A program made the translations under genes and the position numbers. The notes below the pieces were generated by a model. It was not told where the DNA came from and ran no database searches. It was given only the letters and a program-made list of their open reading frames with translations. From Deltaproteobacteria bacterium (GTDB lineage Bacteria > Myxococcota > Kuafuiibacteriia > Kuafuiibacteriales > Kuafuiibacteriaceae): 64,000 bases of DNA. The stretch is from assembly GCA_040218735.1 (NCBI GenBank), contig JAVJQW010000012.1, positions 46,880 through 110,879 of the forward strand, in the 5' to 3' direction. Of this stretch, positions 29,279 to 31,572 are shown in pieces (position 1 is the first letter of the stretch; each line of letters opens with the position of its first letter).

Positions 29279-30524
29279 CGTTCGATGGGCGGGGTCTATG
29301 CGGGCGGTGTGGGATCGGGCGCCTCGCGCTTCGGAGGGTCCCGCATTCTGAACACGGGCCCCACACCCGAACACGGGGTGCGAAATCCTCTGAAGTAGCT
29401 CCATCCGGTCGAAGCTCCCCTCGCGGTCCCTAGCTAGGTACGCGCTTCGGAACGCCTCCGCGCACGGTCTCGAGCGTCTTCTTGTATCGCGCCGGTGCTC
29501 GAATCACTCGCCTGCTTCGCAGTCGTGTCGTGCTTCTCGTAGCCGAGGTGCGACGTGGACTCGCCCGCCAGCGCGCGCTCGACCTGCGGCGCCCGTCTGG
29601 ATCCCGATCGTCCGACCAGGGCGTTACGAAGTCTTCTGAACTATCTCATCCGGGAAACGCGAAGTTCCCCAGAAGCGCGCCGTGCACGCCAGGGTCCGCA
29701 CGGACATCACGGCGTCGGCCCCACGCCCGACGCCGACATCAAGTCACCGCGAGGGCGTCTGGGGTGCGCGTCGTACGAACGCGGCGTGTGCCCGATCGAG
29801 CTCCTCGTGAACGTCGACCAATCCCGGTAGCGCCCCGAACCCCACCACAACACCCGGAAGCTGAGCCACCGAAACTTCGATTTCGGTCCGGAGACACACC
29901 AATGCCGCCCCTCCCTCCAACTCGTCGACATCCAGCCCCCTTCTGCGACCAATCCCACCCACTCGCGCCCCACGCCTAACAACCCCACGAGGGACCCCAG
30001 TAGCCCACTGCTGATGCCGTCCGTGCAACGGCGGTCGAGGAAGCTCGGCCGTGACCACATCGATCGCTGGCTGGTGAGCGGAGAGGCTCGGGGCGTTGGC
30101 CGTGCGCCGTAACGATGGCCGTGCTGGTCGCGGTGCGAGGAGGCGCGCCGACTCGCGTGTACGCCGTGTCATTTCTCGGCCGTGGCCCTTGGGTCCGGGC
30201 GAGCGCGGGCGCGCGAGGTTTGCGGTGCAGAGCTCGCTCGAAAGGACCGCCTTTGGTGGGCGTTTGGCTTGGCTGCGTTTCTCGTGGTGTTGCAAGTTGT
30301 GTTGACGCGGCGCTCGTAGGCGCGACGCGGTGTCGAAGGGACGGACTGGGGATCGAGCTTGGTCAGCGCGCGGCACCACCGCCCAACCTTGGAGCCACCT
30401 GAGTCGTGACCCCAGAGCGCGTTTGGATGACGGTCGTCGCCAAGCCGACCGCTCGACGTGATCGCCTCGCTTCCGAAGCCCTCGGCCGCGCGGACCGCCT
30501 GCCGCGGCCGCTCCGACAAATCAC

Positions 30525-30565
30525 GCTCGCTCAATAAGTCGCGCCCGCTCCAATAAGTCGCGCCC
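30525..30565. repeat. tandem direct repeat (2 x ~20 bp, CTC(C)AATAAGTCGCGCCC) immediately upstream of the RAYT gene
   Basis: The sequence gctcaataagtcgcgcccgctccaataagtcgcgcccc is seen directly, and is followed by an AT-richer stretch before the ATG at 30616. Confidence 0.6.
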
Positions 30566-30615
30566 CCTCATTCGGACGCAGGCTGCAACGAACTGCTTGC
30601 CAACCGGGGATACAA

Positions 30616-31320
30616 TTGTTAGCCTTATTCAAGATGCAAGGCGTCCTTCATTTCCCCTTCCGACACGGCGGTGCTCGGAAGAACGCGGGTCGTAAGAAGG
30701 GCAAGGGGCGCCGCAACGTCGAGCACCGGCGGCGCGAGTCGATCCCCAAGAGTGCTCCGGTGCACGTGACGCTTCGGGTGTCGCGGGTCGTCGGGAACCT
30801 TCGAAGCAAGCGGCGGTTTCAGCCGATCAAGCGGGCGCTACGGGACGGCGCCGAACGCTTCGAGTGCCGCCTCGTGCACTTCTCCGTGCAGAAGAATCAC
30901 CTGCACCTCCTGGTGGAGCCCCGAGACCGACGGTCACTCATGCGCGCGATGAAAGGACTTCAGGTTCGCTTGGCGCGTCGCCTGAACACCGCGCTGAAGC
31001 GCCGCGGGCAGGTCTTCTCGGACCGCTATCACGCACACGTGCTGCGAACGCCTCGCGAGGCGCGCCACGCCATCGCTTACGTGCTGCTCAACGCGCGCAA
31101 ACACGCCGCGCAAGGTGGCCATACGCTCCCGAAGCGCTGGATCGATCCCTACTCGTCCGCGCGCTGGTTCGACCGGTTCGAGAACGGCGGAGCACGCTCG
31201 ACGGACGAAGTCCGCATCGGCGGTCCGCCGCGCGTATGGCTGCTCCGGAGAGGGTGGCGCGACGCCGGACCGATCTACGTCGACGAAGTGCCCGACCGGC
31301 GCGCTCGCGGGCGCCCGTAG
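30616..31320 (+). mobile_element. REP-associated tyrosine transposase (RAYT; IS200/IS605 TnpA-like HuH enzyme)
   Basis: HuH motif HFSVQKNHLHLLVE and catalytic Tyr context RYHAHVL. The size (~230 aa) is typical of RAYTs. An alternative start is at 30634. Confidence 0.8.
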
Positions 31321-31340
31321 GTCGTCGGCCGGTAGCCGAA

Positions 31341-31461
31341 CGACGCGAAGCCCCCAGAACCGCCGACACGGCGCGCGCGCGGGCGTCGGTGGGCCGTTGA
31401 TGACGCGAAGCCCTCAGAACCGCCGACACGGCGCGGGCGCGGGCGTCCGTAGGCCGTTGGC
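31341..31461. repeat. tandem REP-like repeats (2 x ~60 bp plus a partial third), GC-rich imperfect palindromes
   Basis: cgacgcgaagcccccagaaccgccgacacggcgcgcgcgcgggcgtcggtgggccgttgat is repeated with 5 mismatches. Each unit contains an imperfect inverted repeat (CCGCCGACACGGCGCG / CGCGGGCGTCGGTGG). Confidence 0.7.
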
Positions 31462-31572
31462 CCCGTCGCGCGAAGCTGGGGTCCCCGCTGCCACGACTTC
31501 GCCACATCTCGGGAACCAGATCGCCTCCCCCCACCAACACCAACCCCACACGCGCCCACCATCCTGGACAGC

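Follow-up and report, generated by a model that had tools for sequence, protein, structure and literature searches.

A RAYT-like HUH/Y1 gene bordered by locus-specific tandem repeats in a Deltaproteobacteria bacterium

Contig JAVJQW010000012.1 of a Deltaproteobacteria bacterium carries a gene for a putative tyrosine transposase that is followed, directly after its stop codon, by tandem 60-bp units. The locus raises the question whether these units are repetitive extragenic palindromic (REP) elements that a REP-associated tyrosine transposase (RAYT) mobilises and has dispersed through the genome, as a preliminary description of the locus had proposed. We analysed a 64-kb stretch of this contig, referred to as the window; all coordinates are positions in it, and Lnnn denotes the related loci compared. 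Three close relatives were available: contig JAVKBZ010000079.1 of the metagenome-assembled genome (MAG) GCA_040222965.1 ('Deltaproteobacteria bacterium'), which is 100% identical to the window over 20.7 kb; an 11.5-Mb contig of JGI sample 3300058926, which is 99.9% identical and whose copy of the locus is L090; and the sister species GCA_040223155.1, whose ortholog is L003. The preliminary description proved largely right in what it observed and partly supported as a whole, but its central inference, a cognate dispersed REP, is not supported. Instead, we consider it probable that the locus holds a domesticated RAYT-like Y1 gene of a non-REP subfamily, flanked by locus-specific and unstable tandem duplications.

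The array behind the stop codon consists of two 60-bp tandem units on the forward strand (31341-31400 and 31401-31460), which are 93% identical, preceded by a degenerate 'unit 0' (31292-31340, forward strand) that overlaps the last codons and the stop of the Y1 gene. Tandem Repeats Finder (TRF) reports 2.0-2.3 copies of the 60-bp unit and a further row at 31310-31447, and none of the shuffles of the window gave a match to the unit. Positions 31292-31399 align with 31363-31459 at 78% identity, that is, the unit resembles the segment that contains the last ~50 nt of the gene, and unit 0 is the probable source of the repeat. The sister ortholog L003 has one full unit and the window has two, as does L091; L090 has four, of which the two extra ones are 100% identical to each other and are hybrids of unit 1 and unit 0. 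Because the unit resembles the gene end and because close relatives hold one, two or four units, the array is a locus-specific minisatellite, non-palindromic and variable in copy number, and is not supported as a dispersed REP.

A cognate REP, mobilised by the neighbouring enzyme and scattered over the genome, is improbable for several further reasons. The protein is RAYT-like, every unit does contain a single GTAG or GTGG, and there is a 5-bp hairpin (CGCCG-ACA-CGGCG), which recalls Marinomonas with its small 5-bp REP stems and its REP clusters near tnpA (PMC8266576). However, REPs are imperfect palindromes of 20-40 nt with a 5' GT(A/G)G, and here the tetranucleotide is not at a hairpin foot: the small hairpin ends ~16 nt 5' of it, and the next one follows ~30 nt on its 3' side. 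A scan of 29279-31572 for GT[AG]G combined with a hairpin of 6 bp or more yielded a single site, equal to the background rate, and none inside the arrays. Folded as single-stranded DNA on either strand, neither the 60-bp units nor the whole array nor a 19-bp repeat region upstream of the gene exceeded dinucleotide shuffles in stability (z = +0.4 to +1.7); the tandem units reported earlier stand, with the degenerate unit added, while their reading as an imperfect palindrome does not. The genomic sequence sampled for further copies of the 60-bp unit, given as about 260 kb in total, yielded none, be it the 64-kb window, three same-species loci (61 kb) or four sister-species loci (~73 kb), and the unit is absent from every paralog locus. 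Across the genome collection excluding the source genome, the 60-bp core GAACCGCCGNNACGGCGCGNGNGCGG gave two chance matches only, in Gemmatimonas and in Verrucomicrobiota. No recurrent stem family was found in the 64 kb, and k-mer counts revealed no REP-like dispersed repeat there. The derivation of the unit from the end of the coding sequence, and flanking inverted repeats that stay at control level across the family, also speak against a REP.

Next to the array, the gene itself (30634-31320, forward strand) encodes a Y1 HUH protein of 228 aa that belongs to a RAYT-like subfamily, as indicated by Pfam, NCBIfam, alignment, AlphaFold and Foldseek. Its open reading frame ends at 31320 and can start either at TTG 30616, which gives the 234 aa first reported, or at ATG 30634. 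Since each paralog begins at the corresponding codon (ATG, TTG or GTG), with a conserved leader immediately before it, ATG 30634 is, on this comparison, most likely the true start. The Pfam family Y1_Tnp (PF01797) matches with 35.4 bits against a gathering score of 23, and the HUH motif that had been recognised in HLHLLV is borne out as H89-L-H91 within NHLHLLVE. In an alignment of 27 family members, H89 and H91 are invariant, as are E95, Y149 (AYVLLNARKH), D171, S174 and S175 (the DPxSS tail motif), the N-terminal motif GG.R..AGR (HGGARxGAGRK) and the C-terminal motif WLL..GW. The motif YHAHVL, earlier named as the tyrosine motif, contains Y132 (DRYH), which is only ~90% conserved, with C or F instead in some members, and which lies in a beta strand of the AlphaFold model (pLDDT 85), whereas Y149 sits on the following helix (140-160). 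Because the HUH-to-tyrosine distance published for the superfamily, 58-67 aa (PMC6006769), fits Y149 (58 residues from H91) and not Y132, the predicted catalytic tyrosine is Y149. The C-terminal 70 residues are modelled mostly as coil with two short helices. As a separate observation, codon 2 of the sister-species ortholog is TAA (ATG TAA at L003 1392-1397, and the same in L004) where the window has ATG CAA, while the L003 sequence downstream of this codon is 95% identical to the window; either the gene was recently inactivated there or a downstream start is in use.

The placement of this protein relative to known Y1 families follows from both profile and structure searches. With Foldseek, the first match in the PDB is 4er8_A, the E. 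coli TnpA_REP (E = 4.7e-6, 179 columns), followed by the IS200, IS608 and ISDra2 transposases; a sequence-only PDB search, with E = 0.02-0.7 for IS200-type and REP-type chains alike, was too weak to discriminate. The NCBIfam model REP_Tyr_transpos (NF047646) is the best NCBIfam match of all 27 members tested (best member E = 3.3e-13), and the bit score reported, which is for the query alone, is 42, below the cut-off of 80; transpos_IS200 (NF033573) gives the query 22 bits, below its cut-off of 55. These results support the assignment of the protein to the HUH/Y1 (IS200/RAYT) superfamily, in which its affinity is with RAYTs more than with IS200. Class-2 proteins are recognised by Y-x3-N-P together with a W that is conserved ahead of beta4, while a Ser-Ser motif in the tail marks subclasses 2.1, 2.2 and 2.6 (PMC6006769). 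The family consensus YVLLNAR.H keeps the Y-x3-N context with A replacing P, and the consensus VF(A/S)DRYH (QVFSDRYH here) has F where the class-2 W is expected. Because of the sub-cut-off NCBIfam score, Y-x3-N-A in place of Y-x3-N-P, and at least four paralogs, the protein cannot be called a canonical RAYT: descent and fold make it RAYT-like, yet it falls short of several defining features. A search of 5.8 billion proteins returned more than 2,200 relatives, many of them labelled 'RayT' through JGI COG-based annotation; Anaeromyxobacter and metagenomes of soil and sediment account for most of these relatives.

Four intact paralogs lie on the 11.5-Mb contig, at 1.18, 4.57 (the window locus), 4.92 and 8.03 Mb, and at least three of them have a counterpart in the sister species, which carries one more besides. 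Annotated paralog products of 183-186 aa are start-codon miscalls, except for L005, which reflects a real 5' loss; L005 lacks its 5' end, yet its counterpart L095 is intact. Between paralogs, DNA identity is 82-87%, synonymous divergence (dS) is 0.44-0.90 and the ratio of nonsynonymous to synonymous divergence (dN/dS) is 0.08-0.14, compared with a dS of 0.18 for the window gene and its sister-species ortholog. No relative was found on 72,556 plasmids. Homology between paralog loci is confined to 30611-31313, which covers core promoter, leader and coding sequence, and to 30062-30263, within a conserved noncoding element that we call U. The gene copies are therefore old, fixed and under purifying selection and not a currently transposing insertion sequence, since the paralogs are old by dS, have a dN/dS of ~0.1 and are absent from plasmids.

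It is accordingly very unlikely that the gene is part of an active IS200/IS605-type insertion sequence with U as its left end and the 3' repeats as its right end. Several copies per genome, U and coding sequence that travel together, and contigs of other assemblies that break near the gene would all agree with such an element. The copies, however, fall far short of the ~99% identity usual among copies of IS200 (PMC6006769), two species carry the gene at the same loci, there is no conserved right end, and U has no stable hairpin. The tyrosine motif is likewise Y-x3-N and not Y-x3-Q, in line with the low transpos_IS200 score.

The U element (30040-30265, forward strand) is a conserved noncoding block of ~200 bp found upstream of every paralog on the same strand: in L001 at 8156-9507, in L002 at 9790-9945, in L005 at 8464-8651, in L093 at 8756-9487, in L094 at 9055-9465 and in L095 at 9302-9485, sometimes tandemly duplicated. 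Its copies are 72-78% identical between paralogs, though synonymous sites are near saturation. The 12-mer GGCCGTGCGCCG is present in 9 of 10 aligned copies and its first 9 bases in all 10, while GGCCGTG occurs 17 times against 0.68 expected, four times in the U of the window. GGCCGTG was rejected as a family-wide recognition motif, being enriched in the U of this lineage only and not in 80 metagenomic loci. U is also not a coding remnant, as its mismatches show no codon periodicity, nor a structured RNA or DNA, as it folds no better than shuffles, shows no covariation in 6 or 10 copies and has no Rfam match. U is the best candidate for a cis partner of the Y1 enzyme.

Further sequence features lie between U and the start codon. 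Two good copies of a 5' tandem repeat had been described, and these stand, with a unit of 19 bp in place of 20: TRF finds a period of 19 bp with 3.6 copies, amounting to about 3 units of CGCTCCAATAAGTCGCGCC at 30503-30569 (forward strand), of which the last two (30529-30566) are best kept. CAATAAGTCGCGCCC occurs at 30532-30546 and 30551-30565, 2 matches against 0.16 expected by chance. The array is 70-130 bp away from the ATG on its upstream side and closely precedes the presumed promoter; the L003 ortholog has the same 19-bp period with 3.6 copies (1261-1327), and the paralogs have no 19-bp array. Its core, GCTC(C)AATAAG, resembles the family consensus leader GCTCAATCAAG, and the window has hardly any other motif of this kind. 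The 19-bp units may be regulatory sites. Downstream of the array, at 30596-30633 (forward strand), lie a presumed core promoter and a short leader: TACAAT at 30609-30614, presumably the core promoter, is followed by TGTTAGCCTTATTCAAG abutting the ATG. The leader sequence of the window gene is TGTTAGCCTTATTCAAGATG, and the conserved paralog leader ends in ...TTAGCCTTATTCAAG directly before the start codon. The stretch of promoter and leader is conserved in all paralogs and its ATTCAAG part family-wide. A strict sigma-70 scan returned no promoter, and terminators occurred at chance level only.

Across the wider family, 50 of 68 loci (L010-L089) have A[AT]TCAAG at a distance of 0-2 nt from the start codon on its 5' side, against 0.8 expected, although the family proteins are only 45-50% identical. 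The motif usually lies downstream of a promoter of the form TTGACA-N17-TAnAAT, an arrangement that implies a very short leader without a Shine-Dalgarno sequence. This pattern suggests that A(A/T)TCAAG is either such a conserved, very short leader or an operator.

Tandem arrays are not confined to the window gene. Of the 12 arrays that reach a TRF score of 150 in ~200 kb from this lineage, 11 are no more than 1 kb away from a Y1 gene, and among 85 family loci 11 long-period arrays occur within 1.2 kb of the gene (129 kb) as against 1 in the 201 kb beyond (binomial p = 2.4e-4); these are raw counts, and the genes are flanked by long intergenic regions, which tolerate arrays. The units are unrelated between paralogs: L001 has 62 bp x4.4 and ~295 bp x4.6, with the ~295-bp range spanning x2-4.6, L094 has 228 bp x1.9, and some paralog arrays take in the 3' end of a neighbouring gene. 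The arrays begin at or overlap the stop codon in three of the four paralogs. We take the association of arrays with Y1-family genes as real but of unproven cause.

One explanation for this association is that the Y1 enzyme itself makes the arrays, by nicking and rejoining single-stranded DNA in cis beside its own gene. U or the leader would then be the recognition site, and local re-insertion or duplications during fork restart would build a 'minisatellite island' at each gene copy. The clustering counts and the arrays at or over the stop codons fit this idea, as does the gene of L038, which lies inside an array of ~89-bp direct repeats; in Marinomonas, moreover, REPs multiply locally beside tnpA_REP (PMC8266576). 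On the other side, the unrelated units, some with pieces of neighbouring genes, argue against site-specific mobilisation, the long intergenic flanks would tolerate arrays in any case, and only ~15% of metagenomic family loci with adequate flanks have such arrays. We regard an enzymatic origin of the arrays as a minority possibility. Its general form is somewhat more doubtful, namely that the Y1 subfamily comprises domesticated single-strand-DNA nucleases which build or remodel minisatellites round their own genes with U or A(A/T)TCAAG as the cis site; if true, this would be a repeat-generating system with local, direct-orientation products, unlike the spreading, palindromic REPs.

Several individual arrays were also recorded. 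L094 holds a 53-nt segment twice (10546-10598 and 10621-10673), 75 nt apart and 52/53 identical, one copy containing the stop codon of the Y1 paralog and the other containing the 3' end of the convergent neighbour. Just upstream of U, L095 has a near-perfect 12-bp microsatellite (GGCCGGCGGGAA x12.8) together with a 13-bp x6 repeat (8995-9147). The L038 array flanks its distant family member on both sides in the same orientation (1199-1754 and 2776-3613). Tandem units near two unrelated members, at L036 114-233 and L057 4971-5156, have TTGATT(G/A)GGCACATGTCC in common.

Downstream of the 60-bp array, an exosortase gene of the EpsH family, starting at GTG 31573, and a gene for a 917-aa VIT-domain protein occupy 31573-35753. 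The C-terminus of the VIT-domain protein (…PEPEVWALLLMGLMMLFVMHRR…) resembles a PEP-CTERM sorting signal, which makes the protein, as far as this resemblance goes, a likely dedicated substrate of the adjoining exosortase; in related loci an Hpt-domain gene comes next. The Y1 locus had been suggested to mark an insertion boundary at this exosortase module, which is not supported: the sister species has the same gene order, with 88.7% identity over 3 kb at the locus. The C-rich stretch 31480-31572, directly 5' of the exosortase GTG, is ~97% identical to the sister species compared with this 88.7%, and is probably the promoter or leader of the exosortase-VIT operon. An Rfam search of the locus and two paralog loci gave no match, and no tRNA was found in the window.

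This arrangement admits another function for the 60-bp array, as a promoter-proximal variable repeat that tunes the exosortase/VIT operon and is unrelated to the Y1 gene. The array does lie 110-230 bp upstream of the exosortase start and abuts the ~97%-conserved 93-bp stretch, and its copy number differs between strains. Even so, the unit derives from the end of the Y1 gene, and comparable arrays follow the stop codons of paralogs whose downstream neighbours are quite different; we therefore give this function very little credence.

The reading that we favour, a domesticated RAYT-like gene beside unstable local duplications, would work as follows. The Y1 gene would be a chromosomal, vertically inherited gene, its product a predicted single-strand-DNA HUH/Y1 nuclease-ligase, and its subfamily, RAYT-like but apparently not REP-associated, is widespread, occurring in Anaeromyxobacter (Myxococcota) as well as in uncultured bacteria of soil and sediment. 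The repeats arose where they stand, as tandem copies of neighbouring sequence, with the final ~50 nt of the gene supplying the 60-bp array; they would lengthen and shorten through replication slippage or unequal recombination. U and the leader would be the best candidates for the natural DNA substrate of the enzyme.

Four points weigh against this reading. First, the two units of the window could be a short-read collapse of a four-unit array. Short-read assemblies end inside or beside the repeat arrays of the locus (L092 of GCA_040220335.1, and the contig ends of L003 and L004), so copy numbers in such MAGs, the two units of the window included, may be under-estimates. Second, sampling short of the whole 11.5-Mb genome leaves room for a low-copy dispersed family (less than ~1 copy per 100 kb). 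Third, the clustering of arrays near family genes hints at an involvement of the enzyme or of U, and passive slippage alone may not suffice. Fourth, the activity of subfamily members is predicted from sequence only, and their substrates are candidates.

The locus bears on annotation and on function alike. Thousands of RAYT-like genes are annotated as "REP element-mobilizing transposase RayT" from COG membership alone, and here is a large, mainly environmental subfamily without REP partnership, yet strong purifying selection maintains it in several old paralogs. Two conserved cis elements are peculiar to the subfamily, the start-codon leader and the upstream 200-bp block. If the enzyme causes the clustering of arrays, HUH nucleases would be linked to bacterial minisatellite formation, and an orphan enzyme family would gain a testable substrate; if it does not, the locus is an ordinary domesticated Y1 gene beside an ordinary variable repeat.

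Compared with known systems, the locus stands nearest to RAYT/TnpA_REP (E. coli YafM, PDB 4ER8; groups 2-3 of Bertels; subclasses 2.2 and 2.5 of Quentin), which also provide the best NCBIfam and the best PDB fold match of the window protein. Both have the Y1 HUH fold with its HUH motif, a Y-x3-N tyrosine on the next helix ~58 aa downstream, a C-terminal extension with the Ser-Ser motif, and a chromosomal, vertically inherited gene with no recent (>95%) duplicates. Unlike RAYTs, the window protein has a long basic N-terminal tail with the invariant HGGARxGAGRK, scores 42 against 80 bits, and carries Y-V-L-L-N-A and F in place of Y-x3-N-P and W. Its genomes hold at least four paralogs each compared with about one copy, no GTAG-tagged palindromes flank the gene, and no abundant flanking 16-mer family was seen in the available DNA.

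The TIRYT or TnpA_Y1 proteins of subclass 2.1 (group 1 of Bertels; PMC3733652, PMC6006769), likened and set apart here by their published descriptions, share with the window family a length of ~230-240 aa, the SS tail motif, the absence of REPs, about two or more diverged copies per genome and prevalence in 'delta-proteobacteria'; in addition, the relative L006 is flanked by a 27-bp, 96% inverted repeat. They differ in their C-terminal helix-turn-helix (HTH) or DnaA_C-like domain, as none of the 27 members had a Pfam match to a Bac_DnaA_C-, HTH_23- or HTH_28-like domain at E <= 0.01, and in the motif GGGGWSAS, which was not seen by eye. Terminal inverted repeats were at control level in the window, where the best upstream/downstream match scored 10 (controls averaged 9.8 and reached 15 at most), and in most of 54 loci, among which only L006 (24) and L038 (18) exceeded the control maximum and L030 reached 14. 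Inverted repeats ~719 nt apart in the window, L003 and L002 were dismissed as chance, since their arms are not at homologous positions and their scores equal the control level. Flanking inverted repeats are no general feature of the 80 metagenomic loci, so that the family as a whole typically has neither a REPtron nor a TIRtron architecture.

The IS200/IS605 transposases TnpA (IS608, ISDra2) have the catalytic fold in common with the window protein, as well as several copies per genome and, presumably, the chemistry of a 5'-phosphotyrosine intermediate on single-stranded DNA. In contrast to them, the window family consists of old, diverged copies at fixed loci in two species, none on plasmids, and has no conserved subterminal hairpins, no Y-x3-Q motif and no tnpB partner. 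Finally, the arrays themselves match bacterial minisatellites, or variable-number tandem repeat (VNTR) loci, in their units of 19-300 bp, set head to tail and specific to the locus, and in copy numbers that differ between near-identical strains, with hybrid units that suggest unequal exchange. What sets the arrays apart from such loci is that they cluster round one gene family, often starting in or at its stop codon.

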